Position numbers and translations under genes: made by a program. Below the pieces are notes generated by a model. That model made no database searches and was not told where the DNA came from. It saw nothing but the letters and a program-made list of their open reading frames with translations. From a bacterium (GTDB lineage: Bacteria; Patescibacteriota; Minisyncoccia; UBA6257; GWB1-50-10), in the NCBI GenBank assembly GCA_021801565.1, contig JAJYXV010000003.1:293-64292 (forward strand): a stretch of 64,000 nt of DNA, given 5' to 3'. Numbering within the stretch: the stretch's first letter is position 1; every line of letters starts with the position of its first letter. Of this stretch, positions 2,615 to 54,718 are shown in pieces.

Positions 2615-2628
2615 GCACCAAATCTTTA

Positions 2629-2724
2629 CCCCGTTAGATAGAGATAAAATTAAATGTTATCGTATATTACAAATAAGGAAATGTTAAAAAACAAAAAGGT
2701 CAATCTAGAATTATATCTAACGGG
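2629..2724 (+). repeat. Intergenic palindromic element, CCCGTTAG...CTAACGGG family (divergent copy)
   Basis: CCCCGTTAGATAGAG ... TTATATCTAACGGGG inverted termini flank an AT-rich core. Right end abuts the GTG at 2725. Confidence 0.45.
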
Positions 2725-3534
2725 GTGCGCAATTTTATATTCTCGCCTCGCTCGAATAAAATTGACATGAGCAAACCATTTTTATCGGTTATTATTCCAG
2801 CATATAATGAATCAAAACGATTGCCACTTACGCTTATTGATATCGATCGAAAACTATCTCTGCGAGATTATGAATATGAAATATTCGTGGTAAGTGACGG
2901 GTCCCGTGATGAAACTGCGGATATCGCCGAACGATTTTCACATATGATAAAAAATCTTCATGTTATTGCAAATAAAGAAAATCATGGGAAAGGATGGGTG
3001 GTGCGGCAGGGAATGCTTGCGGCAAAAGGAAACTGGAGATTGTTTACCGATGCTGATAATTCAACCTCGATTGAACAATTTGATAAAATGGTTCCATATT
3101 TTTCCGCCGCTGGCGGATCTGCCTATAGCGGAAAAAAATCCTTTGATGTGGTGATAGGGTCAAGGGGAATAAAGGGAGCTGAATTACACCCTCCGCAACA
3201 ATGGTATAAGCAGATATTGGGAAAGATGGGAAATTTATTTATACAGATGGTGGTGCTTTGGGGAATACAGGATACACAATGTGGATTCAAATGTTTTTCT
3301 GAAGAGGTAACGGAAAAAGTATTTCCCCTTATGAAAATTGATCGTTGGGGGTTTGATGTGGAAGTGCTTGTGCTTGCAAAGCAGATGGGATATCGGATAA
3401 AAGAAATTCCGGTGCGTTGGGTGAATGATTTTCGTTCAAAAGTGAGCTTAAGCGCATATATTTCGACGCTTCTCGAGGTTATAAAAATCAGATGGTGGTT
3501 ATGGCGAAAACAGTATAAATTGGAAAAAAATTAA
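2725..3534 (+). CDS. Family 2 glycosyltransferase (dolichyl-phosphate-mannose synthase/GtrB-like)
   Basis: LSVIIPAYNES...VVSDGSRDET GT2 signature. Likely true start is the ATG at 2767 (MSKPFLSVII); the GTG at 2725 is in frame. Confidence 0.75.
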   Translation: MRNFIFSPRSNKIDMSKPFLSVIIPAYNESKRLPLTLIDIDRKLSLRDYEYEIFVVSDGSRDETADIAERFSHMIKNLHVIANKENHGKGWVVRQGMLAAKGNWRLFTDADNSTSIEQFDKMVPYFSAAGGSAYSGKKSFDVVIGSRGIKGAELHPPQQWYKQILGKMGNLFIQMVVLWGIQDTQCGFKCFSEEVTEKVFPLMKIDRWGFDVEVLVLAKQMGYRIKEIPVRWVNDFRSKVSLSAYISTLLEVIKIRWWLWRKQYKLEKN

Positions 3535-4666: not shown

Positions 4667-7600
4667 ATGAAAAAGATCATCTTTGATGAAAAGGAATTAA
4701 TTCAAATATATGAGGGATCTCCTTCATATTTTGAGTTGATGAAAAAACTTTCTGCGCTTTACGAAAAACAAAAGAAGGCAAAAGAAATTCCAGAGCGTTT
4801 AGTAGAAAGAAAGTTTATTAATTCTGCAAAATCATTGGCAAAAAGACTTAAATTGGTGAAAGAACACCATCATGCCAAATACTCTTTCCGTTTATGGGAT
4901 GAAAATCGTCTTGCAGAGTTTACTCATGCGGTACGAAAAACAATCCGTGAGAGGAAAAAATATGACGTATTGCTCAAGGATTTTCCAGAGCTGGGAAGTA
5001 CAAATATTGTGTACTTTACGATTCAATCGGCAATCCCTGGCGGTATTAAAGGGATTCGCGATGCAATCGCTATGGTCGGGAGCGTCGAGCTTGATACGCT
5101 TCGTGACGCATTGAATGATGCCGAAAGAGGAGTTTTGGATTGTATGAATGAGCTCTACAAAACAAAACGTATGTTACGTGTCGGAGATGTTGCTGAAGTA
5201 ATCAAAAGCAGCAAAGATAGCATTCGTGGTATTATGGTAAAACTTGCTGCGCAGGGTTTCTTTGTGAATATTCCTGGCGAGCATCACTTGTTTTTCAACA
5301 ATTCTCCAAACTTCTACACCCCAAAGGAATTAATGAAGCTTATCTCGACCGAAGAGCAAAATAGGATTGCAAATGTTCTTCATATGGGTCCTATTACCAC
5401 GCGTCGTCTCGCACAACAGCTGTATGGTCAGGAAAAAGTAAGTAATGCATTTCTTTCTACGTATCTTACTAACCTTACCGAACGCGGATTATTGGAAATT
5501 GATCGAGACACCAGTGAATATTTATTGACTAAAAAGGGAAGTGAATTTGGTATTGATGCTACATCAATTCAAGCTCTTGATATCACCATACTTGAAAACA
5601 AATTTCTTATAAGAGACGAAGAACGTTCAAAGCCGTTTAAGAGTCTTTCAGAAGTAAGAAATGCGGTCATTCAAGACAATGAGGATAAGGAGATAAGGTT
5701 GATTGATATATCAAATCATCTTTCTAAGGATAGCTTCAAATTTCTCACTATCTCAGAAATTCTTTTTGGGAATCAAAATACCGATGTAGCCCTTTTGGAA
5801 AAGATCCTTCTCAAATCGGAACCTGATTTTGCGATTGTAAGCGGTCTTGTTCAAGGCACATTCACAGCGCGAAATGTAAAGCGTCAAAATGAGCTTGTTC
5901 AACCTCGAAAATTATATAAGATTGGATCTCAAATAAGCGCCGCATCGCAATTTCTTAATAAACTTGATGAGCGAACAAAAGGTCCGGTTTGTATTGCGCT
6001 TGGTGATGATGATCTTCGTATTGCTGAAGATTATGCAGATATTGCGCAATTGAATGAGGGAAAAACTTGGACATTTGGCGTGAATTACACAAGTCTTACT
6101 GCAGAATTGCAACGAAGGATTAATATTCGCGAATATCACACAAAACGGAAGATTCAGTTTGAAATAATTTTACCGTATCAATATCGAGTACGTCGCGCAT
6201 TAAAAAATGCGAAAGAAGTGTGGAAGGAAATCGGAGTTAAAAAGTCCGAATACCGTCTTATCATGGAAATTCTCATTTTGAATCGCGCAAAACAACCGTA
6301 TCCTGAAATTTATGAAAAAGTTGTTGATGTCAATGCGTTACTTGGTGGTTTAAAACATGGAATTGTTACACCCGATTCTCTGATTTTAAAAGTTGGCGAT
6401 CGTACTATACAGTTTGTGCATAACACGAATTTTAGTGATGTAACACAATATGTAGATCCGCTTTTTACCTCAGAGAAAATTATGCGACATTTCATGTCTC
6501 GTGATTATCAGAAACTACCATGGATGTTGCTTGATGGACATCAAGAGATGTTTTATGGAACATATTTCCAGAATCACTGGGTTATGTGTCTTCCTGGAAT
6601 GCAGAATTCACTTGATATGGCAATGCACCGCAAAAAAACCCTCGTGACACGAGTTCTTCAATCAAAGTCCTTAAGGCAAAATACATTCCGAAAAGATCCA
6701 TCAACACCAGGGGCTGTTGAAATTGAAGTTTGTACTGAAGGTGGAATTGAAAACGATGGAAGAATCCGTCTTAGATTCTTTAATGATAAGATTATGGATT
6801 TACTTGATCGGGAGAAGGGCAAAAAGCACAAACAAACTGTTATTGGAGTTCTCACTGATCTTCAGTTTGGCTCTCCAACAATGCAGCCCGAACTTGTAAT
6901 AAAATATCTTGATTATTTACTCTACACTCGTGGTGCAAGATTGTTACGCGGAAATGGTGATTGGCTTCAGGGGTTTATCTATCCAGGATTTCCAGCAGAA
7001 TCAAGAACATTGCGGATGGTATCGGTTGATGCTCAACAACGCTTTACAAATGAGTTGTTAGTTCCGCTAATTACCGATGCTCCACACCTGGAAGATGTTG
7101 CTTTCTGGCAGGGGAATCATGAATGGGGTATCTGGAGTAATGCACTAACTGGTCAAAATGCGTTGTATTTTATGGAGGCCGCACTTCAAAGATTTATTGA
7201 TGGAATGAGAAAGGCGGGAAAAAATCCAAAACTCAAAACTGCAAGTACGGTAAGTAGAATTATTATGGCTCGTACCACGAATCCGATGGGTGATAGAATT
7301 CTTTTTCCGTATTTTGCTGAGACGGTAGATGAGTGGTTCAAAATTGCGTACACGCACCAGTGGCTTCCATATGGAGGCGGACGAACACCCGTTGATCAAC
7401 CACGTCGCTGGGTAAGCAACATGGCAAATGCTGCGGGAGATATAAATGTGTTGATTGGTGGAGACAAGCATTCGCTGTGGTTGAATCAGGAAGCGGGAAA
7501 GATTCTTATTCAATTGCCTGCTGCCGCAACTCAAAGTGGATATGAACTTGCTCGAGGACTTATGTCTACTGTAATGTTCGCGCTTCTCGTTGTGGATAAT

Positions 7601-9752: not shown

Positions 9753-9760
9753 TTATAAAT

Positions 9761-9900
9761 CCCGTTAGAAACCCTGCTTACCGGCAGGCAGGCGCAATCG
9801 ATATATATAAAATAAAAAACAACTATGAGATATATAACAAAACAATTAGTCGCAATAAAGCCTATTATGGGTTGCTTGATCGCGATCTGTTTCTAATGGG
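9761..9900 (+). repeat. Intergenic palindromic element, CCCGTTAGAAAC...GATCGCGATCTGTTTCTAATGGG family
   Basis: Left end CCCGTTAGAAAC plus a CCTGCTTACCGGCAGGCAGG hairpin. AT-rich core with ATATATAAAATA. Right end abuts ATG 9901. Confidence 0.6.
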
Positions 9901-10764
9901 ATGAAAAAAATATTAGTGTTATATCACAAAAATTGTCCGGATGGGTTCGGAGGGGCATGGGCGGCATGGAAAAAATTTGGCAATAAAGCTGAATACGTTG
10001 CCGTTGATCCCGATACGCTTCCCGAAAAGTTTCCAAAGGGAAAAGAGATATATTCGGTTGATATAAGCTATCCGGTTTCAGTTCAAAAAAAATTACGGGA
10101 GAAAAACAAATCGCTTGTGATACTTGATCATCACGTGAGTAGAAAAAACGACACGGAGGCGTTTCCCGAAAATACATTTAATAATAATCATTCGGGTGCC
10201 GTGCTTGGATGGAGGTATTTTCATCCAAAAAAGAAGGTACCGAAATTTTTGGAATATATTGAGGATTATGATTTATGGAAATTTTCACTTCCAAAAACAA
10301 GAAGTATTATTCCATATCTCCATATGCAAAAAACTGATTTTATAACATGGGGGGAAATGGCGGATCAACTTGAAAAAAGAAATTGGGAAAAAATTTATTA
10401 TGAACGGGGGATGCTTTTACAAAAATATGAGGATAAAATAGTTGCCGACCTAATAAAAAAAGCAGACCTTGTTCTTTTTGAGAGAAAAAAGGTGTATGCA
10501 GTGAACTCTTCTCTAAGTAACATTGTGGATAAAATTGCTCACAATCTTTGTTTAAAAAAACAGCCGTTTTCAATTGTGTGGCATGAAAGAAGAGGAGAAT
10601 TAAAAGTATCTCTTCGTGCCGATGGGAAAATTGATGTATCGAAGATTGCACAAAAATACGGTGGAGGAGGGCATAAGAGCGCGTCGGGATTCGTAATAAA
10701 AAACGGGAAAAAACCATGGAAGATGGTAAAAACAAAAGACAAAAAACCGAAAACGAAAGATTAG
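9901..10764 (+). CDS. DHH/DHHA1 phosphoesterase (NrnA-like oligoribonuclease/pAp phosphatase)
   Basis: HKNCPDGFGGAWAAW, VILDHH and GGGHKSASGF motifs. Confidence 0.7.
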   Translation: MKKILVLYHKNCPDGFGGAWAAWKKFGNKAEYVAVDPDTLPEKFPKGKEIYSVDISYPVSVQKKLREKNKSLVILDHHVSRKNDTEAFPENTFNNNHSGAVLGWRYFHPKKKVPKFLEYIEDYDLWKFSLPKTRSIIPYLHMQKTDFITWGEMADQLEKRNWEKIYYERGMLLQKYEDKIVADLIKKADLVLFERKKVYAVNSSLSNIVDKIAHNLCLKKQPFSIVWHERRGELKVSLRADGKIDVSKIAQKYGGGGHKSASGFVIKNGKKPWKMVKTKDKKPKTKD

Positions 10765-11212: not shown

Positions 11213-11662
11213 TTGGTACATCAAACGATAGCTCCGATGTAACATCGGAGAGGAAAGTCCGGACACTCAACCCCGAATTTATTGAGGGGTACGTGTAGTG
11301 GGTAACACCCATCGAGGGAAACCTTAGAGGTGCGAGCAGTGACGCTCCAGCGCGCAAGAGTTGGAGAGACCCAATCCTAAGCTAGAAGGTCTAACTTCGC
11401 TATAGGGATAAAAAAGCGGAGGTGAAACGGCTAAATCCTTACATGAGTGCAAGATCGTGCTATCTTGTGCGGAGCACAAGTAACTGACAACAAACGACTA
11501 ACGACCAACAACGAAGATTTTTTCTATGTATTGTATGTTGTGGGTTGTAAGTTGTAAGTTACTCGCGCTCTGCGCGAGGTGGAGAATCGCTTGAGTCCGA
11601 GAGTAATCAAGGACCTAGATAAATTATCGTATAAACAGAATCCGGCTTATGATGTACCCAAT
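11213..11662 (+). ncRNA. rnpB: RNase P RNA (bacterial type A-like) with an ~85-nt inserted hairpin
   Basis: P4 strands GAGAGGAAAGTCCGGAC (11248-11264) and ACAGAATCCGGCTTAT (11634-11650). P1 GGTACATC / GATGTACC. P3 hairpin CTCCGATG-TAAC-CATCGGAG. Confidence 0.8.
11480..11563 (+). repeat. ACAAC-rich / GTTGT-rich hairpin element (copy A), inside rnpB
   Basis: GTAACTGACAACAAACGACTAACGACCAACAAC ... GTTGTGGGTTGTAAGTTGTAAGTTAC. The arms are complementary. Confidence 0.5.
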
Positions 11663-12123: not shown

Positions 12124-12136
12124 TTGAGGTATGCAT

Positions 12137-12247
12137 CCCATTAGAAATCGCGATTGCTGATGGGATAAAAATAAAATGCAAAAAATACAAGTCGTAATTA
12201 AAGAAAGTATAAACCAGTTCGTTTAATCACGATCTGTTTCTCATAGA
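12137..12247 (+). repeat. Degenerate copy of the CCCGTTAGAAAC palindromic element
   Basis: CCCATTAGAAATCGCGAT ... ATCACGATCTGTTTCTCATAGA. Ends at rpmJ ATG 12248. Confidence 0.4.
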
Positions 12248-12364
12248 ATGAAAGTTCGTGCATCAGTAAAAAAGATTTGTCAGCATTGTAAAATCGTCCG
12301 AAGGAACGGCAAGTTGTATGTCATTTGTAAAAAAAATCCGAAACACAAACAAAGACAAGGATAA
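12248..12364 (+). CDS. rpmJ: 50S ribosomal protein L36
   Basis: 38-aa [41 protein letters not shown]. Below the ORF-track size cutoff. Confidence 0.8.
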
Positions 12365-12783: not shown

Positions 12784-13236
12784 ATGGGAAAGAAAAAAGT
12801 TATACAAAAAACAAAAGAGCAGTTAATAGAAGAATCAGAAAAAGTTCAAGAAACGACCGAAAGAAAAGCGAGTCAGGGGGGGAAACATAAAATTGAACGA
12901 GGGAGGATTTACATTAATGCATCTTATAATAACACTATTATTACTGTGACGAATGAAGTTGGAAATGTCGTTGCATGGATGTCTTCTGGATCGATAGGAT
13001 TTTCTGGTCCTAAAAAAGCAACCCCATTTGCTGCATCAAAGGTTGCGGAAGCAATTTCAGCAAAGTTGGAGAAAACCGGTCCGTTTAATGTTGATGTATT
13101 CATATGTGGCGTTGGAAAAGGAAGAGATTCCGCGGTACGTACGTTTGCAGCGAAAAAGTTTAACATCCTTTCAATTAAGGATGTAACCCCAATTCCACAT
13201 AACGGTCCGCGTGCTCCGAAGGTAAGAAGAGTATAA
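12784..13236 (+). CDS. rpsK: 30S ribosomal protein S11
   Basis: GRIYINASYNNTIITVTNEVGNVVAWMSSGSIGFSGPKKATPFAA. Confidence 0.9.
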   Translation: MGKKKVIQKTKEQLIEESEKVQETTERKASQGGKHKIERGRIYINASYNNTIITVTNEVGNVVAWMSSGSIGFSGPKKATPFAASKVAEAISAKLEKTGPFNVDVFICGVGKGRDSAVRTFAAKKFNILSIKDVTPIPHNGPRAPKVRRV

Positions 13237-13251
13237 AATCTATTTATGAGT

Positions 13252-13382
13252 CCCGTTAATAATAGTTTTTATATCATTGACGGAATTATGAAATGACATT
13301 ATGTTAAATACACAAAAAACAAAAAAGACGAAATTTACAGAAAAAACGTACGGAAACGTAAACGTTTCCTATTATTAACGGG
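13252..13382 (+). repeat. Intergenic palindromic element, subfamily 2 (CCCGTTAATAATAG...CTATTATTAACGGG)
   Basis: Perfect 14-nt inverted termini. Internal hairpin GGAAACG-TAAA-CGTTTCC. Right end abuts ATG 13383. The preceding ATGAGT starts a tiny ORF. Confidence 0.55.
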
Positions 13383-13985
13383 ATGAAAAAAATTACGGAA
13401 AAAAAAGAACGATCACTCGGTGTAAGACTTTTCTTAAAAGCTGAACGGTGTAATTCTCCAAAATGTGTCATGGTGCGTCGTCCCACTCGTCCTGGTCAGC
13501 ATGGACAAAGACGGCACACGGTTTCTGAATATGGGAAGCAGCTACAAGAAAAACAAAAAATTCAGTTTTTATATGGGTTAACAAACCGCCAGATGACAAA
13601 ATTATTTCAGTCTTCAAATAGAAAAGAAAAGATTTTGCAGGTTCTTGAACATCGTCTTGATCGAGTCGTTTTTCTTCTTGGTTTCGCTGCATCTCCACGT
13701 ATTTCCCGTCAGCTTATTTCGCATGGCCATGTGTTGGTAAATGGAAGAAAAGTGACTATTCCATCGTTTCGTGTTAGGATAAAGGACATCATATCGATTC
13801 GTCCCGAATCTCGATCTCTTAAGCTCTTCGAAGAAATTCAGCTAAAGTTAAAGAAATATTCCTCTCCAGAATGGTTGAAGCTTTTTCCAGAGGAGTTAAA
13901 GGGGGAATGTGTAAAGAATTTTGATCCGGGGCAATCGCAGTTGCCATTTGATGTAAATATCGTCGGAGAATTTTATTCAAGATAA
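13383..13985 (+). CDS. rpsD: 30S ribosomal protein S4
   Basis: RQLISHGHVLVNGRKVTIPSFRV S4 domain. Confidence 0.9.
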   Translation: MKKITEKKERSLGVRLFLKAERCNSPKCVMVRRPTRPGQHGQRRHTVSEYGKQLQEKQKIQFLYGLTNRQMTKLFQSSNRKEKILQVLEHRLDRVVFLLGFAASPRISRQLISHGHVLVNGRKVTIPSFRVRIKDIISIRPESRSLKLFEEIQLKLKKYSSPEWLKLFPEELKGECVKNFDPGQSQLPFDVNIVGEFYSR

Positions 13986-15460: not shown

Positions 15461-15913
15461 ATGGAGAAAAAGACAGTTACAAAAGAAAAAAAAGAAGTAG
15501 TGAAAAAAGAAAAGGAGAGATATACCGAAACGGTGGGGCGAAGAAAAACGTCCATTGTGCGTGTTCGATTATATCAAACAAAAGAAAAACACGGAGGGAA
15601 ATATGATATTGTCATAAATGATATTCCGTTTACAAAATATTTTCCAATTGAAAAGCAGAGGAAAACAATCATTTCTCCGTTTATGAAGACTGAAGAAGTG
15701 TATCGTGTAACCGCATATGCAAAGGGTGGGGGTATTTTTTCTCAAGCGGAAGCACTTCGTCTGGGAATTACTCGTGCTCTTGTGTCCATGCATCCAGAAA
15801 CACGAAGCAAGTTGAAAGCGCTTGGGTATCTGAAACGTGATCCTCGTATGGTAGAGAGAAAGAAATTTGGAAGCAGAAAAGCTAGGAGACCACAACAGTG
15901 GAGAAAAAGATAG
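15461..15913 (+). CDS. rpsI: 30S ribosomal protein S9 (N-terminally extended)
   Basis: GGGIFSQAEALRLGITRALV...KARRPQQWRKR C-terminus. Confidence 0.85.
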   Translation: MEKKTVTKEKKEVVKKEKERYTETVGRRKTSIVRVRLYQTKEKHGGKYDIVINDIPFTKYFPIEKQRKTIISPFMKTEEVYRVTAYAKGGGIFSQAEALRLGITRALVSMHPETRSKLKALGYLKRDPRMVERKKFGSRKARRPQQWRKR

Positions 15914-15917
15914 TTTT

Positions 15918-15950
15918 AAAAACCCTCGATATACAATCGAGGGTTTTTAA
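15918..15950 (+). terminator. Rho-independent terminator after rpsI
   Basis: AAAACCCTCGAT-ATACA-ATCGAGGGTTTT stem followed by TAAAATTT. Confidence 0.6.
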
Positions 15951-16010
15951 AATTTATATTTGGATCTTTTTAGGAAGTATTTTATTTTTAAATAAGCTAG
16001 AATATATATA

Positions 16011-25131: not shown

Positions 25132-25140
25132 CATATGGAT

Positions 25141-25273
25141 CCCGTTAATGATAACTTTTTTCAGAAGATGGGAATTTTATGATTACATTTAATTATGAAG
25201 AATAAAAAAGAAAGGTACGACACATACAGACAAAAAGTGTACAGAAACGATTGCGTTTCTTATCATTAACGGG
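25141..25273 (+). repeat. Intergenic palindromic element, subfamily 2 (CCCGTTAATGATAA...TTATCATTAACGGG)
   Basis: Perfect 14-nt inverted termini. Internal hairpin AGAAACG-ATTG-CGTTTCT. Flanked by ATGGAT on both sides. Right end abuts ATG 25274. Confidence 0.55.
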
Positions 25274-26338
25274 ATGGATATTGTACTCATTATTGTGGGC
25301 CTTTCGGTGCTCATACTTGTGCATGAGATTGGACATTTTGTGAGTGCTAAATTTTTCGGAATCGGTGTCGAAGAATTTGGCATAGGGTTTCCCCCCCGGA
25401 TTTTTGGCAAAAAATATAAAGGAACACTCTATAGTGTGAATGCACTTCCATTTGGCGGATTTGTAAAAATAATTGGCGAAGATGGGGATGAGAATGAAAA
25501 GGGTAATGAAATAAAAAAAGATTCGTTAAATTTTTCTTCTCAGAAAATATGGAAGAGAGTAATTGTTCTGGTGGCAGGCGTTTCAATGAACATCATTGCC
25601 GGATGGATTATTTTTAGTGCTGTGTTTATGGTGGGGGTGCCGACAAAACTTACCATTATTGATGTATCTTCAAATTCTCCAGCGGCAATAGCAGATATAA
25701 AAGCAAATGATTTTATTGTAAAAGCTACCTATAGCACAAAAACACTTGAGGATCCCATTCAAACTAAAGATTTTATCAGCCTTGTAAAAGAAGCGGGGGA
25801 AAACAACATAACACTTACCCTACAAAGGGGAAAGGAGGTGATAGAAAAAACGCTTCAAGGAAGAATACATCCTCCTGAAGGACAGGGTTCGCTTGGATTG
25901 GGATTGGGGGAATCGGGCGTTGAACGAAAAAGTTTTTTTGGAAGTTTGTGGTATGGAGCAACGTACACATGGGATATCATACGAATGACGACCATTGGAT
26001 TTTTTGATCTCATTGTAAAAATATTTTCTGCACCAGGAATGGTAAAAAATGTTGCGGGTCCCGTGGGGATTGTGGTGATTGCAAAACAAGCGGCCGATAT
26101 CGGTTTTGTATATTTTCTTCAATTGCTCGCGCTTATTTCGATAAATTTGGCGGTATTAAATTTATTGCCGTTTCCCGCACTCGATGGGGGACGCGTGCTT
26201 CTCCTTGCAATTGAAAAAATAAAAGGGAGTCCCGTTTCACTTCGTGTACAATCATATATAAATATGGCGGGTTTCTTTCTTCTAATTGCACTTATGCTTT
26301 TTGTGACGTTTCAGGATGTGACAAAACTGTTTAAGTAG
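25274..26338 (+). CDS. rseP: RseP/site-2 zinc metalloprotease (PDZ-containing)
   Basis: LVHEIGHFVSAKFFG HExxH. Polytopic membrane protein. LDGG motif. Confidence 0.75.
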   Translation: MDIVLIIVGLSVLILVHEIGHFVSAKFFGIGVEEFGIGFPPRIFGKKYKGTLYSVNALPFGGFVKIIGEDGDENEKGNEIKKDSLNFSSQKIWKRVIVLVAGVSMNIIAGWIIFSAVFMVGVPTKLTIIDVSSNSPAAIADIKANDFIVKATYSTKTLEDPIQTKDFISLVKEAGENNITLTLQRGKEVIEKTLQGRIHPPEGQGSLGLGLGESGVERKSFFGSLWYGATYTWDIIRMTTIGFFDLIVKIFSAPGMVKNVAGPVGIVVIAKQAADIGFVYFLQLLALISINLAVLNLLPFPALDGGRVLLLAIEKIKGSPVSLRVQSYINMAGFFLLIALMLFVTFQDVTKLFK

Positions 26339-36480: not shown

Positions 36481-37146
36481 ATGGGGAATTTTGGAAAGAT
36501 TTTAATTGGAGTTGCGATTATTGGGTTGCTTATCTATGGAGCATATTATGCATATACAAATTGGTGGGGGAATGGAAATGCCGATAGTGCGGTAGGAAAA
36601 GTAAAGGGTATTGCGGTTGAAGCGGTGCAGAGCACAAAAGAAAAAATATCGGAAGCACAAACAACGACAGGAGAAAAAATTGGGACATTTATAAAGGAAA
36701 AAACCGGATCGGTAATTTCCTCTATTGGAAACTCAATTTCAAGTTTTGGGGATTCTATAGTTGGCGAAAAGGTAACTACTAATCAAAATACTTCTGGAGG
36801 AAATTCAAGTATTAATTCTTCTCCACAGACAGTCGTACTATCAGGTGGTGTGAATAGTACCACCACGGAAGCTGCAACAGGATCAAATTTTGTTTTACCA
36901 CCTCCCTTTACTGCAATTATTACAAAAATAAATACACCGCTTGCGTTTTCAATAAATAGAGAGGTAAATTATTCGATTGATTGGGCAGATGGAACTACAG
37001 AAAAAGGAAAAGTTTTGGCCGGAGAAAGTATGTTAGTTTCACATGAGTGGAAAAAACAGGGGGATTATACTATTGTGTTCACTATTGTTGACTCTACAGA
37101 AAGTCACACCTATTCATTTCCTATAAGGGTATATGAGTCCCGTTAG
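36481..37146 (+). CDS. Hypothetical membrane-anchored, Ser/Thr/Gly-rich protein
   Basis: N-terminal TM, low-complexity middle. Its stop codon TAG lies inside the left terminus of the next palindromic element. Confidence 0.35.
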   Translation: MGNFGKILIGVAIIGLLIYGAYYAYTNWWGNGNADSAVGKVKGIAVEAVQSTKEKISEAQTTTGEKIGTFIKEKTGSVISSIGNSISSFGDSIVGEKVTTNQNTSGGNSSINSSPQTVVLSGGVNSTTTEAATGSNFVLPPPFTAIITKINTPLAFSINREVNYSIDWADGTTEKGKVLAGESMLVSHEWKKQGDYTIVFTIVDSTESHTYSFPIRVYESR

Positions 37147-37257
37147 AAACAGCGATCGCGCGCATAAACTATAAATTTTAGAGATATATATACTATGGTC
37201 GGATATATAAAATATACGTACACTTCGCATTTTTGATCGCGATCTGTTTCTAACGGG
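37139..37257 (+). repeat. Intergenic palindromic element, subfamily 1 (canonical copy)
   Basis: CCCGTTAGAAACAGCGATCGCG ... GATCGCGATCTGTTTCTAACGGG with an AT-rich core (GGATATATAAAATATAC). Right end abuts ATG 37258. Confidence 0.6.
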
Positions 37258-38073
37258 ATGAATAAATTTAAAAAAACTGAAATTCTTTCTGCACAACGCT
37301 CGCATAAACCGAGAAAAAAAATTCGCGTTTGGGGAATTGCGCTTATTATATTTTTTGTTGTTGGAATTCTTATCGGATTGTCTTATCTTATTTTGAATAT
37401 GCAGATGCTTAAGGTACAGAGTATAAAAGTATCGGGAGTCCGCCTTACAAATCAGAATACTATCATTTCTTCTTTTTTTGCAGAGTCGGTAAAGCAAAAA
37501 GCGTGGTTGGTGCTCCTTGGTCCCGATAACCTTCTTTTTTGGAAATTTGCCCCAGAAGAAATTTCTCCTCTGTATGTTTCTACAGTGCAAGATATAAAAA
37601 AAGACGTTAGTTTTGGAGAGAAGAAAGTTCTTTTGGATGTAACAGAACGTTCAGTGGTGAACGTACTTTGTGAATATAATGGAGGAAAGTGTTATGGAAT
37701 GGATGAAAACGGGTTTGTTTTTTCTTCTGTACCGGAAGTGCATGGTGCACTTATTTTGCGGTTTGAGGCGGGTCCAGGAGAGAAAATAATGGTGGGGAAA
37801 CAATACCTTGATTCCCCCGAGTGGACGAAAAATATTATGGAAACAATTTCGATTATGGAATCTGAAGGGTTTACTCCTAAATTAATAAAGGTAAAAGGGG
37901 TTGGACTCGAAGAGTGGGAAGCGGTAATGCCTGAAGGATTTTCTTTTTATTTTAGCCTTCACTTTATTCCTGAAAATTTCCGTTCAATCTTAAACGATAT
38001 TTCTTCAAAGACTCGTCTCGATACGCTCCAATATTTCGATTTTCGAGTGCAGAACAGAGTGTATTATAAATGA
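37258..38073 (+). CDS. ftsQ: FtsQ/DivIB-like cell-division protein (POTRA)
   Basis: Basic N-terminus, single TM, POTRA-like region (LKVQSIKVSGVRLTNQNTI). Confidence 0.45.
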   Translation: MNKFKKTEILSAQRSHKPRKKIRVWGIALIIFFVVGILIGLSYLILNMQMLKVQSIKVSGVRLTNQNTIISSFFAESVKQKAWLVLLGPDNLLFWKFAPEEISPLYVSTVQDIKKDVSFGEKKVLLDVTERSVVNVLCEYNGGKCYGMDENGFVFSSVPEVHGALILRFEAGPGEKIMVGKQYLDSPEWTKNIMETISIMESEGFTPKLIKVKGVGLEEWEAVMPEGFSFYFSLHFIPENFRSILNDISSKTRLDTLQYFDFRVQNRVYYK

Positions 38074-46417: not shown

Positions 46418-46722
46418 ATTGACCTAAATCGTATTTTGTGTATTATATACACAAGCCCGTAGATAGTCCCGATTTTATATGCGCGAAGCGAATTAATAAA
46501 ATCGTGGATCCCGATCAGGAAAATGTATTGGGATAGGCAGCCAGAAATGGCAGAAGTCCTGCTGAGGAAACAAAAATAGGTGTTAGCAAGTTAGGTATTA
46601 GGTGTTTAGGAAATTTCTAAATTACTAATGGTCTAGCCGTCTAACTTTCTGATTTAAGAGTCTGCGGCGAAAGGTCGGAGATTTTTTTGTTTTGTTTGAG
46701 CGAAGCGAAATTACAAAACAAA

Positions 46723-46887
46723 CCCCGTTAGATACATATGTATTTTGTCTATGTGTTGAAAAGTAGGAAAGATTCAAATTTTTATGTTGGAAAGACTAAA
46801 AATTTGAAAGAGTGTCTTGAAAACATAAAGGGGGAAGAGATGTCTAAAGAACAGGCTTAAGTATGATCTTTATGGTATCTAATAGGG
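46723..46887 (+). repeat. Degenerate palindromic element (CCCCGTTAGATAC ... GTATCTAATAGGG)
   Basis: Inverted termini, 11 of 13 matching, about 165 bp apart in the long rplJ leader. Confidence 0.3.
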
Positions 46888-46932: not shown

Positions 46933-47430
46933 ATGAAAACAAAAGCACAAAAGATAAAAAAAGTTGAGGAAGGAGGAAAAATCGTTGATGAAAAAAATAC
47001 GTTGATCTTTGCCGATTTTACTGGAACAAAAGTGAATGATATGAATTCACTCAGAAAAAGTCTTTATGCACTTGAATCAAAATTTGAAGTATTCAAAAAG
47101 CGTTTGTTCCGTGTGGTTTTACAACAAAAGGGATTTGAATTTAATCCAGAAACACTTGTGGGTCAACTTGGTGTTATTCACACCAATAAGAGATTAGATG
47201 AAATTGCGGGACCAGTGTACAAGTTTGCAAAACAATTCAAGACATTCAAAATTCTCGGAAGTGTTGATTTGAAGAGTAAGATATTTGTTTCAGGAACGGA
47301 GGTTGAAGCAATTGGACAATTACCTTCACGTGAAGTACTTATTGCGCAAGTGGTGGGTACAATCGCAGCGCCAATGAGTGCCTTTCTCTATGTGTTAAGT
47401 GAGAGATCAAAACAATTACAGTCGAAATAA
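46933..47430 (+). CDS. rplJ: 50S ribosomal protein L10
   Basis: MKTKAQKIKKVEEGGKIVDEKNTLIFADFTGTKVNDMNSLRK. The ORF track gives a longer N-terminus starting at 46897. Confidence 0.8.
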   Translation: MKTKAQKIKKVEEGGKIVDEKNTLIFADFTGTKVNDMNSLRKSLYALESKFEVFKKRLFRVVLQQKGFEFNPETLVGQLGVIHTNKRLDEIAGPVYKFAKQFKTFKILGSVDLKSKIFVSGTEVEAIGQLPSREVLIAQVVGTIAAPMSAFLYVLSERSKQLQSK

Positions 47431-47435
47431 AAATA

Positions 47436-47507
47436 ACTAACAACAAACAACAAACGACCAACAACAGGATATAAAAAGTTGTATGTTGTAAGTCGTAGGT
47501 TGTGGGT
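47436..47507 (+). repeat. ACAAC-rich / GTTGT-rich hairpin element (copy B), between rplJ and rplL
   Basis: AACTAACAACAAACAACAAACGACCAACAACAGG ... GTTGTATGTTGTAAGTCGTAGGTTGTGGGT. Confidence 0.5.
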
Positions 47508-47515
47508 AAAATATT

Positions 47516-47881
47516 ATGGAAAAATTTAATGATATCATTGAGAAAATCGAGAAAATGACCGTTGTAGAACTTGCGGAGCTCGTAAAAGTTCTCGAAGAAA
47601 AGTTTGGAGTAACCGCATCAATGCCATCAACTGGAGGAGCGGGAGTGGCAGGAGCGGAAGTTGTTGAGAAAACGGAATTTAACGTAGTCCTAAAAGTGGC
47701 GGGTGATCAGAAAATCAATGTGATCAAGGCCATCAGAGAAGCAACCGGATTGGGACTGAAAGAAGCAAAGGATATTGCTGATGCAGCTCCAAAGACGGTG
47801 AAAGAAGGAATGAAGAAGGAAGATGCGGAAGAGTTGAAGAAGAAACTCGAAGCAGCAGGTGCAACAGTGGCGTTAGAATAA
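47516..47881 (+). CDS. rplL: 50S ribosomal protein L7/L12
   Basis: [15 protein letters not shown]...[30 protein letters not shown]. Confidence 0.9.
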
Positions 47882-48120
47882 AATAAACGTTTTGTAGTGC
47901 CGACGGTTTGTTTGTTCCAGCGATAAACAACCGTCTGCACTCTCGTTTTGAAAATCCGCTCAGTAGCGGAACCAAGCTTTTCAAAACTCCGAGAGCCACC
48001 ACAAAATGTTTATTTTATTCTTTTTTAATTTGGTTTAAAATACAAAATATGGGCGCTTACCCGCCCATCCTGCCTACCAGTGGCAGGCGGTAGGCAGAAC
48101 TCAGATAGTTTTAAATATTT

Positions 48121-48192
48121 GCGCGCATAGCTCAGTGGTAGAGCGTTCCGTTCACATCGGAGAGGTCGTAGGTTCGATCCCTACTGCGCGCA
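48121..48192 (+). tRNA. tRNA-Val (anticodon CAC)
   Basis: Manual cloverleaf. Acceptor GCGCGCA / TGCGCGC, D-stem GCTC / GAGC, anticodon stem TTCCG / CGGAG, loop TTCACAT, T-loop TTCGATC. CCA not encoded. Confidence 0.85.
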
Positions 48193-49970: not shown

Positions 49971-50402
49971 ATGCTTCTTGGTGAATATAAACATACAATA
50001 GATCCAAAAGGAAGAGTTGCTATTCCTGCGAAGTTTCGAGAGAAATTTACTGCAGGTGCAATCGTTACTCGCGGTTTGGATCACTGTCTTTTTGTGTTTA
50101 GTAAATCCGAGTGGGAGATACTGGCACAGAAAATTATTTCACTTCCGCTTGCACAAGCCGACTCCCGTGCGTTTGCTCGTCTTATGCTTTCGGGCGCAAC
50201 CGATGTTGAGCTTGATGTGCAGGGAAGAATTTTGATTCCGGACTCACTTCGAAATTATGCGCAGATGAAGAAGCAGGTGGTGGTGACCGGAATGTATACA
50301 CGCGTTGAATTGTGGGATACGGATGCATGGGAAGCGTACAAGAAAAAAACCGAAAGTGCAGCAGATGAAATTGCCGAGAAATTGAGTGAGTTGGGAATCT
50401 AA
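49971..50402 (+). CDS. mraZ: Transcriptional regulator MraZ
   Basis: MLLGEYKHTIDPKGRVAIPAKFR and a second DxxGR repeat (ELDVQGRILIP). Confidence 0.8.
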   Translation: MLLGEYKHTIDPKGRVAIPAKFREKFTAGAIVTRGLDHCLFVFSKSEWEILAQKIISLPLAQADSRAFARLMLSGATDVELDVQGRILIPDSLRNYAQMKKQVVVTGMYTRVELWDTDAWEAYKKKTESAADEIAEKLSELGI

Positions 50403-50405
50403 TTT

Positions 50406-50499
50406 ACCAACAACAAACAACATACAACTAACAACATGAAAAACACAGAGATATATAAAAGTCCGCCAGTCGTTCGTTGTTGGTTGTGGGTTGTATGTT
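50406..50499 (+). repeat. ACAAC-rich / GTTGT-rich hairpin element (copy C), overlapping the rsmH start
   Basis: ACCAACAACAAACAACATACAACTAACAACATG ... CAGTCGTTCGTTGTTGGTTGTGGGTTGTATGTT. The right arm contains the rsmH ATG (50495). Confidence 0.5.
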
Positions 50500-51676: not shown

Positions 51677-53283
51677 AAAATTTTCGATTCTACGCACTCT
51701 TTTTTATTTTTGTCATATTATATAGCGCACTTGGCGCCAATCTTTACAAACTGCAGATCAGTAAGGGTGCAGAATTTTCGGCAAAAGCAGATGTAGTAAA
51801 AGAGATAGAAAAAGAACTTACTTTGCGTCGTGGTCAAATATTTTTTACAGATAAATTTGATACGAGTATTCCTATTGCTCTTAATAAAGATGAACCTATT
51901 ATTTTTATTGCACCAAATGAAATAAAAAGTCCGAAAAAGACAAGTGAGGAACTCAGCAAAATTTTCGGAATAGATGCTTTGAAGTTAGAAGAAGTGATTA
52001 ATTCAAATCCAGAGAGCTATTTTTTTCCGTTAGTTGATAGAGCGACTGAAGAGCAGGTAAACTTTGTAAGCGAAAAAAAACTTGAGGGTGTGCATGTAGA
52101 ACAAAAACAGTATCGTTCGTATCCATACGATAACCTTGCATCGCAAGTGATTGGATATGTTGGAAAGAATGATAAGAATCCAGAACCCACCGGGATTTAT
52201 GGTATTGAACGTTTTTATGATAAAGAACTTTCCGGTGGAGAAGATATTCATCTTACCATTGATAGAAATATACAATCGCATGCGGAACAGCTTCTCAATA
52301 GGTACATTGAAAAATTTAAGGCGACTGGGGGAACGATGATCGTGGAGAATCCAAAAACGGGAAAAATTATTGCACTTACTAGCAAACCAGATTTCAATCC
52401 AAATGAATATGGGAAATCAAATATAAAGAATTTTATAAATCCAGCGGTTCAGTATCAGTATGAACCTGGATCGGTATTTAAGCCGCTTACCATGTCGGCG
52501 GGGATTGATACGGGGGCGTTTACTCCTAATACAACGTTTGTCGATAAGGGATTTGTAACACTGAATGGGAGAACAATTCATAATGCGGAAAATAAAGTAT
52601 ATGGAAGGATCACTATGACGAGTGTGATTGAAAATTCTGTAAATACGGGAGCGGTATATGCAGAGCAACTTATTGGACATAAAAATTTTTATGAATATTT
52701 AAAGAAGTTCGGTTTTACAGAAAAAACAGGGATTAATTTACCAGAAGAAATTGCTGGAAATATACGGAATCTTGAACGAAAAGATGCGCGTGCCATTGAT
52801 TTCGCAACTGTTGCATTCGGACAGGGAGCTGCAGTAACACCGCTTCAGCTTGTGAATGCATTTTCGGTATTAGCAAATGGGGGATTGCTTATGAAGCCAT
52901 ATATTAATGAAGATGAAGCTCCGTATGTGGTACGGCGCGTGATAAGTGATGACACGGCGAAAAAAGTAACCTCAATGATTGAAACAACAGTTGAAAAAGC
53001 GAAAATAGCGGCAATTCCACAATATAGAGTTGCGGGAAAAACTGGGACAGCATACATTCCTGAAAATGGGAAGTATACAGAGGAAATGATTCATACATTT
53101 GTCGGATTTGCGCCAGTAAGCGATCCGCAGTTTGTCGTGTTAGTAAAACTTGATCGTCCACAGATCGGCGAGCTTGCGGGTCTCACTGTTGTTCCGGCTT
53201 TTCGTGAGTTATCCGAATTTATATTGAATTATTACAACATTCCTCCCGATAAGGTAAGCGCTGCACAGAATTCATCCCGTTAG
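51673..53283 (+). CDS. ftsI: Penicillin-binding protein (class B, FtsI-like transpeptidase)
   Basis: SVFKP (SxxK), SxN and KTGTA motifs. Its stop codon TAG lies inside the next palindromic element. Confidence 0.8.
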   Translation: MKNFRFYALFFIFVILYSALGANLYKLQISKGAEFSAKADVVKEIEKELTLRRGQIFFTDKFDTSIPIALNKDEPIIFIAPNEIKSPKKTSEELSKIFGIDALKLEEVINSNPESYFFPLVDRATEEQVNFVSEKKLEGVHVEQKQYRSYPYDNLASQVIGYVGKNDKNPEPTGIYGIERFYDKELSGGEDIHLTIDRNIQSHAEQLLNRYIEKFKATGGTMIVENPKTGKIIALTSKPDFNPNEYGKSNIKNFINPAVQYQYEPGSVFKPLTMSAGIDTGAFTPNTTFVDKGFVTLNGRTIHNAENKVYGRITMTSVIENSVNTGAVYAEQLIGHKNFYEYLKKFGFTEKTGINLPEEIAGNIRNLERKDARAIDFATVAFGQGAAVTPLQLVNAFSVLANGGLLMKPYINEDEAPYVVRRVISDDTAKKVTSMIETTVEKAKIAAIPQYRVAGKTGTAYIPENGKYTEEMIHTFVGFAPVSDPQFVVLVKLDRPQIGELAGLTVVPAFRELSEFILNYYNIPPDKVSAAQNSSR

Positions 53284-53413
53284 AAACCCTGCCCGCCGGT
53301 AGGCAGGTGCGATTGCGCCTAGAAGATATTAATTTAAAAAACATGCATACCATCGTCGAATATATAAAATATACACATATCGCACTCATCGATCGCGATC
53401 TGTTTCTAACTGG
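53276..53413 (+). repeat. Intergenic palindromic element, subfamily 1
   Basis: CCCGTTAGAAAC plus a CCTGCCCGCCGGTAGGCAGG hairpin ... GAATATATAAAATATAC ... GATCGCGATCTGTTTCTAACTGG. Abuts murF ATG 53414. Confidence 0.6.
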
Positions 53414-54718
53414 ATGAAAAACTTTTTTCTTTCGATTCTTAAAAAAAAGGTAAAATTTCTTGCAAAACTTACGCTGAAGCGCTACAACCCGGGTATTGTA
53501 GGTATTACGGGAAATATTGGAAAAACATCCACAAAAGAGGCAGTTGGAGTTGTACTTTCGCAAGCACGAAGAGTACGCGCATCATCAAAAAATTTTAATA
53601 ACGAATTGGGGTTACCACTTTCTATTCTTGGAGATTGGAATGTAACAGAAGGAATCTTTTTTTGGATGAAGGTATTTTTTAAATCGATATACCAGCTTGT
53701 CATTAAAAACAAAAAATACCCTGAAATAATTGTATTAGAATATGGAGTTGATCGGGCGGGGGACATGAAATATTTACTTGATATTGCACGTCCGCATATT
53801 GGTATTTTTACTGCAATGGGAGATGAAATGCCCGTACATATCGAATTCTTTAGCGGTATTGAAGCAATTGTGAAAGAGAAATCTAGACTTATACAACAAC
53901 TTCCTACAACGGGGTTTGCAATTTTGAATGCAGATGACATTCGTGTGATGGCAACGAGGGAATATACACATGCAAATGTAGTGACATTTGGATTTTCTGA
54001 AAAGGCAAATATGCGGATTAGTGGTTTTTCGAGCTATGTTTCTGAGGATGGTGGGGGGGTGACGTTTAAGCTTACGTATGGAGGAAGTGTGGTGCCGGTG
54101 CGGATTGATGGAGGACTAGGAAGGGCACCTGCATATGCCGCTGCGATAGGTGCTGTGGTTGGATTGGTGTTTGGAATGAATTTGGTAAAAATTGCAGAAG
54201 CGCTTTCTCATTATATTCCTCCAAGTGGACGAGAGCGTGTCATTCGTGGAGTGCGCCACTCAATTATTATTGATGATACATATAATGCGTCTCCAAGTGC
54301 TACAAAGGAGGCCCTCTCTACACTGAAGAGTTTAAGTGCAAAAAGAAAAATTGCTGTGTTGGGGGATATGCTTGAGTTAGGGAAATATACGTTTGACGAA
54401 CATCAAGCAATCGGACGCCTTATTCCTGAAAGTGCGGATTTATTATTTACTGTCGGTATCCGTGCAAAAATTATTGCCGAGACTGCTGAAAAAATTGGAT
54501 TTTCAAAGAAAAAAATATTTGTATTTACCAATATTCATGAAGCGGCAATGCAACTACAACAAAAAGTATTGCGCGGAGATCTTATTTTGATAAAGGGATC
54601 ACAAGGAGTCCGCATGGAACGGGTGGTAAAAGAAATTATGGCTGAACCGCTTCGAGCAAAAGAATTTTTAGTGAGACAAAGTAGATCATGGTTACGAAGG
54701 GCGGGATTGTATGATTAA
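53414..54718 (+). CDS. murF: UDP-N-acetylmuramoyl-tripeptide--D-alanyl-D-alanine ligase
   Basis: GITGNIGKTSTKE P-loop, GNFNNELGLP motif, Mur ligase middle and C-terminal domains. Confidence 0.7.
   Translation: MKNFFLSILKKKVKFLAKLTLKRYNPGIVGITGNIGKTSTKEAVGVVLSQARRVRASSKNFNNELGLPLSILGDWNVTEGIFFWMKVFFKSIYQLVIKNKKYPEIIVLEYGVDRAGDMKYLLDIARPHIGIFTAMGDEMPVHIEFFSGIEAIVKEKSRLIQQLPTTGFAILNADDIRVMATREYTHANVVTFGFSEKANMRISGFSSYVSEDGGGVTFKLTYGGSVVPVRIDGGLGRAPAYAAAIGAVVGLVFGMNLVKIAEALSHYIPPSGRERVIRGVRHSIIIDDTYNASPSATKEALSTLKSLSAKRKIAVLGDMLELGKYTFDEHQAIGRLIPESADLLFTVGIRAKIIAETAEKIGFSKKKIFVFTNIHEAAMQLQQKVLRGDLILIKGSQGVRMERVVKEIMAEPLRAKEFLVRQSRSWLRRAGLYD

Follow-up and report, generated by a model that had tools for sequence, protein, structure and literature searches.

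What is the leader of about 130 nt that precedes two different genes, rpsD and an rseP-like gene, in the same bacterium? Both genes lie in a 64,000-nt stretch of a Patescibacteriota genome (hereafter the window; contig JAJYXV010000003.1 of assembly GCA_021801565.1), and each leader has inverted termini, a hairpin just before the start codon and a tiny open reading frame (ORF) at its beginning. The original prediction treated the two as copies of one repeated element, and left room for a leader-peptide attenuator or a binding site for ribosomal protein S4. Our analysis makes it highly probable that they are copies of a non-autonomous transposable element of about 120-135 nt, resembling MITEs (miniature inverted-repeat transposable elements) and widespread in the Patescibacteria, or Candidate Phyla Radiation (CPR).

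Anatomy of the two copies

Both copies are on the forward (+) strand and internal to operons: copy 1 (13246-13387 with its flanks) stands between rpsK and rpsD, and copy 2 (25135-25278) between the genes for RRF and for the Peptidase_M50 (rseP-like) protease. The perfect inverted termini described at 13252 and 25141 were present in both on re-reading (CCCGTTAATAATAG at 13252-13265 and CTATTATTAACGGG at 13369-13382; CCCGTTAATGATAA at 25141-25154 and TTATCATTAACGGG at 25260-25273), as was the GAAACG-N4-CGTTTC hairpin upstream of both ATGs, although its spacing is 13 nt and not 12 nt. The inverted repeat proved to be one base longer on each side (T...A) than had been given, so that the element ends with the A of the downstream ATG.

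In copy 1, an orphan ATG (13246-13248) begins the sequence ATGAG (13246-13250), that is, the original A of the gene followed by the left target-site duplicate TGAG. The left terminal inverted repeat TCCCGTTAATAATAG (13251-13265), a subfamily-2 variant of TCCCGTTAGAGAY, comes directly after it, and the orphan ATG reads into this repeat as the mini-ORF MSPVNNSFYIIDGIMK (13246-13296, stop included). At the other end, the subterminal hairpin P2 (GGAAACG-TAAA-CGTTTCC, 13352-13369) lies 1 nt inside the right repeat ATTATTAACGGGA (13371-13383), whose last A (13383) opens the rebuilt rpsD ATG; this repeat also holds a -10-like TATTAT ending 7 nt before that ATG. The right duplicate, within rpsD codons 1-2, reads TGAA (13384-13387). 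Copy 2 has the same plan, with the orphan ATG at 25135, the duplication TGGA at 25136-25139 and 25275-25278, repeats at 25140-25154 and 25262-25274, the hairpin AGAAACG-ATTG-CGTTTCT at 25243-25260, the mini-ORF MDPVNDNFFQKMGIL at 25135-25182 (stop included) and the rebuilt ATG of the protease gene at 25274. The translations of both mini-ORFs are as first stated. Since both regions fold as a terminal stem plus a hairpin with z-scores of -3.6 and -4.8 against shuffles, and score 77.6 and 75.1 bits with the covariance model of the family, these features are not due to chance.

Insertion into start codons

The flanks of the wider family carry the main evidence for transposition. The counts of 130 and 122 copies used here rest on exact-termini matches among the matches listed. 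An ATG adjoins 122 of the 130 copies (about 94%) on exactly one side, and the ORF that follows has a median length of 251 aa, with only 5 of the 122 under 40 aa. The duplicated bases are the four after the terminal A of the element, repeated directly before its first T: an exact 4-bp direct repeat (TGNN) flanks 83/122 copies, with 5 bp in 5 copies and 3 bp in 5. The two variable bases of the duplication agree in 83 of 97 copies where 38 would be expected (maximum 51 in 1000 shuffles), and the left repeat is preceded by A in 80 copies and by G in 3 that were once GTG starts. The target itself is biased as well. At position +4, A is found in 73% and T in 0%, against 45% and 15% in the background of neighbouring genes (p = 8e-9); at +5, A is found in 81% against 38% in the same background (p = 9e-19). 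A few copies occupy non-start sites, one of them with a TCAA duplication 8 nt upstream of an ATG.

The simplest reading of these flanks is a 4-bp staggered insertion into A|TGRR, after which the last A of the element rebuilds the start codon. The host gene remains intact because this final A and the duplicated TG together restore the ATG.

One element elsewhere (L136, 8998-9130) has ATTCAT on its left and ATGAAT on its right, with long ORFs running outward on both strands; both of its ends would adjoin the starts of divergent genes, and its flanks form an inverted and not a direct repeat. The window copy at 53270 similarly has TTCA on its left.

Filled and empty sites in relatives

Orthologous loci were drawn from the relatives L129-L133, whose S4 proteins are 70-86% identical. 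At the PGK|DHHA1 junction, L129 has the empty site AATAATTATGAAAAAAATATT with a single ATGAA, while the element is flanked by ATAAA and TGAAAAAAATATT in the window and by ATGAA and TGAAAAAAAAT in L130. The RRF|M50 junction is empty in L132, contains one element in the window and in L133, and contains two tandem elements sharing TGGA in L130. In L130, a second element seems to have inserted into the start codon that the first had rebuilt. The S11|S4 junction measures 3-22 nt and holds no element in L130 and L132; altogether, rpsD stands without a full element in three relatives and rseP without an element in one. At the start of rpmJ, the window has a decayed long-stem copy where L129 has an intact subfamily-2 copy. 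These junctions record gains, losses and repeated insertions at start codons, not conserved leaders. Small size without conserved coding, terminal repeats, a copy-specific duplication and dispersed empty and filled sites, four of the features by which a MITE is recognised, were found. In a within-species check, the rpsD copy was identical in all six metagenome-assembled genomes (MAGs) or contigs that have the full element.

Two further details of these loci deserve mention. The tandem elements at the rseP start of L130 (14232-14481) belong to different subfamilies. In L129, only TTATTATTAAAGGGATG, about 16 nt, is found directly before rpsD (5490-5510), and it looks like the right-end remnant of a subfamily-2 copy after deletion of the rest.

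The genes downstream are as varied as the sites. The 115 downstream proteins match 141 Pfam families, none more than four times, and S4 appears in the window only, which excludes a regulator specific to one gene as well as an S4 feedback site. Covariation in the family is strong and its folding significant, and the element always occurs in 5' leaders and in one clade only, so that a conserved structured cis-regulatory RNA, a riboswitch or a protein-binding leader and not a mobile element, has to be considered. Such an RNA would have to account for copy-specific flanking duplications, for orthologous sites that are empty, filled, filled in tandem or filled by differing subfamilies, for unrelated downstream genes and for eight inverted copies. 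Its interior is variable, with no conserved unpaired core, and no Rfam family corresponds to it. We therefore judge this alternative very unlikely.

The family in the window and across the Patescibacteria

That the two copies are members of a repeated element with inverted termini was well founded. The covariance model finds at least 7 copies in the window. The six main-type copies each end in ...(G)GGA|TG at a gene start. Members of the family are 118-148 nt long and have 13-bp terminal inverted repeats of the form TCCCGTTA(GAGAY)...(RTCTC)TAACGGGA. Between them is an AT-rich, poorly conserved interior whose only coding capacity is the variable mini-ORF. A relaxed search gave 171 hits, 146 of which have perfect 13/13 terminal repeats, and in 60 aligned copies pairing in the terminal stem reaches 99.6%, with compensatory change at 4 positions.

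Besides the two copies already described, the forward strand of the window carries a long-stem subfamily-1 copy at the DHHA1 gene start (9755-9903), whose left duplicate has decayed to ATAAA; the degenerate long-stem copy at the rpmJ start (12131-12250; 25.6 bits with the covariance model); a subfamily-1 copy with an orphan ATGAG (37133-37260; 55.9 bits); and a subfamily-1 copy with one mismatch in the right repeat and the left flank ATTCA (53270-53416; 30.5 bits). In the window, subfamily 1 is without the local hairpin and has an extended terminal stem instead. The covariance model also finds a variant copy with CCCCGTTAGA...TCTAACGGGG termini (2624-2727, forward strand), which is intergenic and adjoins no start codon.

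A second, degenerate copy of this variant type is found at 46722-46886, again intergenic and with no adjoining start codon. Similar CCCC...GGGG variants elsewhere are flanked by the 4-nt repeats TTGA or TCAA (L072, L076), and longer variant forms of about 280 nt are found in L040, L074, L076 and L112. A GC-rich mini-hairpin motif, CCTGCYNACCGGYAGGCAGG, is present in two subfamily-1 copies (9773-9792 and 53288-53307) and also at 48069-48097 and in L022. The occurrence at 48069-48097 is just upstream of a tRNA at 48121, and the motif may be a smaller repeat nested in the elements.

About 150 copies were found across roughly 100 Patescibacteria (CPR) MAGs, with a density of about 1 copy per 6-10 kb in many lineages. 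The distribution scan used one genome per species and degenerate termini and did not require an ATG; at least 120 stretches matched, and among the matches listed every named record is a CPR/Patescibacteria MAG, the others being labelled just 'bacterium'. The lineages represented include Saccharibacteria, Paceibacterota, Kazan, Wolfe-, Lloyd-, Nomura-, Jorgensen- and Levyibacteria, among others. Viral contigs gave 0 matches to the element, and thus there is no sign of a phage vector. Rfam searches of the window at the gathering threshold, and of 13200-13420 at E<=10, returned only tRNAs and noise, with no family match, and a literature search by keyword and by repeat sequence found no description of this family.

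Origin of the mini-ORF

Why do both leaders begin with a similar tiny peptide? The mini-ORF is a by-product of insertion: the orphaned original ATG of the gene reads into the repeat until it meets a chance stop. The residues shared between copies, M-x-P-V-N-(N/D), are the duplication and the repeat translated in frame (ATG NNT CCC GTT AAT) and nothing else, in agreement with the earlier suspicion that the peptide similarity reflects nucleotide conservation. The word 'conserved', which had been applied to the tiny ORF, suits these two copies but neither the family nor subfamily 2. Copies without an intact mini-ORF frame had been named beforehand as grounds for refuting a functional peptide, and such copies were found: the upstream ATG is missing in 24-36% of copies (29/122 in the family; 5/14 in subfamily 2, a set comprising the two window copies and 12 further ones from a metagenome scan for subfamily-2 termini). 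Mini-ORF length ranges from 6 to 47 codons across the family and takes the values 8, 8, 15, 16, 19, 29, 39, 43 and 46 codons in subfamily 2. In 67 cases the mini-ORF stops within the element, and only 1 of 93 stays open in frame to join the gene that follows. In subfamily 2 the poly-T run next to the terminus differs in length between copies (T4 to T7), so indels ignore the frame. Even between orthologs the ORF is not maintained: the L133 copy, orthologous to the one at 25141 with flanks 82% and element 75% identical, has an rseP mini-ORF of 8 codons where the window has 15. Finally, mismatches between the left and right duplicates strike the ATG and the next two bases at similar rates.

A CGGGA/ACGGGA-like internal motif lies 27-59 nt from the left end in 20/122 copies, against about 4 expected, and on one strand only. 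In the window it is found at 13281-13286 and 25168-25173, where it explains the 'GI' common to both mini-peptides. Judged from its sequence, the motif could pair with the left terminus in place of the right one, or could be a subterminal binding site.

These data bear directly on the idea of a leader-peptide (upstream ORF) attenuator, in which translation of the mini-ORF would control the hairpin and terminal stem, and hence rpsD and rseP, with S4 binding possible for rpsD. The idea has a structural logic. The left arm of the terminal stem falls within the mini-ORF, and the orphan ATG retains the native upstream context of the gene. Translation of the mini-ORF would open the left arm of a 13-bp stem that is otherwise paired up to the A of the real ATG. 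In this the element is like the trp and ermC leader-peptide attenuators and regulatory upstream ORFs, and like S4 leaders, where an upstream short ORF overlaps a stem arm that occludes the real start. The left ATG is kept in 76% of copies, 25 mini-ORFs finish at a TAA 7 nt before the real ATG or overlap it as ATGA, and stop-free interiors are weakly in excess in the ATG frame (32/122 against 19 and 14 in the other two), in copies that are not independent.

However, the element differs from those leaders in that its ORF is unconserved in presence, length and frame, has no gene specificity and is missing from orthologs. The losses, the length range, the frame-blind indels and the stop at codon 9 in the ortholog of the rseP copy all speak against the attenuator, and mutations of the left duplicate are spread about equally over the ATG and the next two bases, as in neutral decay. 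Orthologous rpsD and rseP genes do without the element, elements stand ahead of 141 gene families, and the peptides have no regulatory codon runs. As for an S4 autoregulatory leader, no Rfam S4 or ribosomal-protein-leader hit was obtained at the gathering threshold or at E<=10, and the S11|S4 spacers of L130 and L132 are only the few nucleotides given above. Since the frame, presence and gene link of the mini-ORF are not conserved, we regard an attenuator or S4-binding leader ahead of rpsD and rseP as highly improbable.

The matching sequences on either side of a structured insert (ATGNN...ATGNN) also recall the take-off and landing sites of programmed translational bypass, for which T4 gene 60 and the mobile 'byp' elements of Magnusiomyces mitochondria are precedents. 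Ribosomes would then start at the orphan ATG and hop to the duplicated landing site. However, between a quarter and a third of copies have lost the left match while their genes are intact, the gap of about 125 nt far exceeds known hops, the downstream ATG can initiate by itself, and a nascent-peptide signal is impossible after 2 codons. Bypass is thus an extremely improbable account of these leaders.

The subterminal hairpin and a possible host function

The GAAACG-N4-CGTTTC hairpin is the subfamily-2 version of a subterminal hairpin found across the family. In the 60 aligned copies its 7-bp stem is placed exactly 1 nt inside the repeat on the gene side, with a nearly invariant AC before it; all 7/7 pairs covary and 98.6% of cells are paired, a value that falls to 37-49% when the partner is slid by 1-3 columns. 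These copies were picked for having the hairpin, so the paired percentage is partly built in, while the fixed position and the variety of stems are not. Subfamily-2 stems include GGAAACG/CGTTTCC, GGAAATA/TATTTCC, AGAAAC/GTTTCT and GAAAACAT/ATGTTTTC, and the R/Y position is complementary in 14/14 copies (A:T in 7, G:C in 7). The hairpin is gene-side in 60 copies and gene-distal in 8 (p = 6e-11). No sense-strand wobble excess was detected, G.T against A.C numbering 10 to 9 in the terminal stem and 10 to 7 in the hairpin, and therefore the maintained pairing cannot be assigned to RNA or to DNA.

The orientation bias of 60 to 8 and the maintenance of the hairpin by compensatory change, orthologs included, raise the question of whether the mobile element has been exapted, its gene-proximal end having acquired a function at the level of the host. 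This could take three forms. The right repeat could serve, especially in subfamily 2, as a -10 box from which a leaderless mRNA begins at the rebuilt ATG; the terminal stem and the stacked hairpin (about 20 bp) could form an RNase III-type processing site and so expose a 5'-proximal AUG; or the hairpin could stabilise or insulate the new 5' end. The loci are Shine-Dalgarno-poor, -10-like hexamers are found 6-9 nt upstream of the ATG in 48/286 clade genes against about 14 expected, TATTAT or TATCAT ends exactly 7 nt before the ATG in 14/14 subfamily-2 copies, and a promoter-like TGTACA-17-TATCAT is predicted at 25238-25266. Against this, promoter-like sites overall are no commoner than in shuffles, there is a weak -35 region, the corresponding TATCTC of the main family does not resemble a -10 box, and the similar numbers of G.T and A.C give no RNA-specific signal. 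Copies also decay, as at 12131-12250, and disappear in relatives. On this balance, exaptation is a possibility to which we give a minor place.

The genes of the window and of L129-L145 lack Shine-Dalgarno motifs, and in about 17% of them a -10-like hexamer ends 6-9 nt ahead of the ATG, a pattern which suggests that leaderless mRNAs may be frequent in the clade.

Proposed route of insertion and points against it

How would such an element come to occupy start codons? In the transposition scheme that we favour, a transposase supplied in trans would make a 4-bp staggered cut with a preference for (A)TGRR. The element itself occupies the A|TGRR of a start codon and duplicates TGNN, as its flanks and the empty and filled sites show, and the left duplicate, together with the original A of the gene, becomes the orphan ATG. 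Insertions inside genes would be removed by selection, so that in compact genomes the start codon would be nearly the sole tolerated target. The genes of the window are nearly all on one strand, with tiny spacers and essentially no Shine-Dalgarno signal; a Shine-Dalgarno motif is found in a median of 10% of genes, and nearly all element loci are Shine-Dalgarno-poor. Insertion is presumably tolerated because these lineages seldom use Shine-Dalgarno sequences. The orientation bias may stem from selection for downstream expression or from an asymmetric insertion complex.

Several points weigh against a decaying selfish transposon inserted in this manner. No autonomous partner or transposase bounded by these repeats was seen in about 1.3 Mb of fetched CPR DNA, and about 1 Mb contained no end pair 0.7-3 kb apart enclosing an ORF; a tblastn search with an ISEcp1 transposase sequence, a weak test because the query was possibly inaccurate, gave no match. 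The repeats are near-invariant across very distant CPR lineages, beyond the needs of such an element, in a set whose apparent conservation is inflated by scans that demanded intact termini. Compensatory changes are found in both arms, even between orthologous copies. Taken with the invariance of the repeats, they hint at a constraint on pairing, or at conversion from arm to arm. That target preference and selection together cause the 94% occupancy of start codons is a case made by argument. Lastly, the duplication could be one of 5 bp (ATGNN), the two ends of the element then being unlike at one base; 4 bp is favoured by the 3 GTG cases and by the TTGA/TCAA flanks of the CCCC...GGGG variant.

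Comparison with known elements

The CPR element is similar to several bacterial MITEs, such as the Correia elements (CREE/NEMIS) of Neisseria, RUP of Streptococcus pneumoniae and ERIC/IRU of enterobacteria, in its size of about 100-150 nt, terminal repeats and short duplication. It shares with them many intergenic copies, a lack of coding capacity, division into subfamilies, co-transcription with neighbouring genes and folding into long hairpins. In contrast to these MITEs, the CPR family targets the start codon at (A)TGRR, duplicates 4 bp and rebuilds the ATG with its terminal A; it also has a strong orientation bias and a covarying subterminal hairpin, and it is spread over a superphylum, not a genus. 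The Correia elements have a TA duplication and no specificity for start codons, and to our knowledge their transposase is likewise not known. A different parallel is provided by the Rickettsia palindromic elements, which are likewise small, palindromic and mobile and persist in very compact genomes by inserting where they leave gene function intact. Those are in frame within coding regions and are translated, whereas the CPR element stays outside the ORF and restores the start codon.

The ends also invite comparison with piggyBac. The piggyBac transposon has TTAA duplications, 14-bp terminal repeats with CCC/GGG as first bases and 19-bp asymmetric subterminal inverted repeats, and IS1380 transposases are its distant prokaryotic relatives (PMC10140906). 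The CPR element is like piggyBac/IS1380 in its 4-bp duplication, its repeats of about 13-14 bp starting CCC...GGG and its asymmetric subterminal repeats. It differs from piggyBac in its target, TGRR and not TTAA, and in an extra T/A pair outside CCC/GGG. The sequence CCCTAGAAAGATA, which we take to be the piggyBac end, resembles CCCGTTAGAGATA, and is offered as a lead only. No piggyBac/IS1380-related transposase was found near any copy, which is a weak test. Kinship with piggyBac/IS1380 is thus a lead suggested by end sequence and duplication length.

Other classes of element were considered and set aside. An IS200/IS605-type element is excluded, as the flanks are true duplications. Integron attC sites have the order R''(RYYYAAC)...R'(GTTRRRY), opposite to the GTTAGAG...CTCTAAC found here, and the elements stand at the 5' ends of ordinary genes with duplications. 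An intrinsic terminator is unlikely, the hairpin being terminator-like on both strands only through weak T-richness.

Other features of the window

Some features lie apart from the element family. Between a gene end and a tRNA, a stretch of 147 nt (47875-48021) carries 25-nt arms with 92% complementarity; its interior contains GC, and Rfam has no match to it. This could be another palindromic element or an unannotated RNA. The region 46420-46720, about 300 nt, has neither long ORFs nor an Rfam hit, and GCGAAGCGAA repeats spaced about 210 nt apart are found at 46473, 46690 and 46899. A/C-rich tracts consisting of ACAACAAAC repeats are found upstream of genes at 11473-11525, 47426-47478 and 50396-50448. 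Directly after rpsI, a 19-bp perfect stem with T-runs on both strands (15912-15954) looks like a bidirectional intrinsic terminator that closes the ribosomal-protein operon.

The Logan contigs L005 and L008 both start 24 nt before rpsD, inside the right end of the element.

Significance

For annotation, leaders of about 130 nt and their mini-ORFs are to be masked as repeats and not called small proteins or riboregulators. The family also breaks short-read assemblies, as the two Logan contigs that end within the element illustrate. CPR genomes are generally considered to contain few mobile elements. The copy density and the near-identical ends across distant lineages imply horizontal spread, or else a transposition system that is widely shared and has gone unrecognised. 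A MITE that targets the start codon and restores the ATG with its own last base is an unusual route to persistence where intergenic space is almost nil.

The elements are, in addition, natural experiments on Shine-Dalgarno-independent initiation in the face of a structured leader. It is tempting, if doubtful, to go further and to regard the element as a mobile start-codon cassette that replaces the native leader of about one gene in ten in Shine-Dalgarno-poor CPR and supplies the message with a new 5' end. Selection at the level of the host would then maintain the covarying hairpin and the paired termini. If this were true, the start signals of translation and transcription would have a transposon as their general vehicle across the superphylum.

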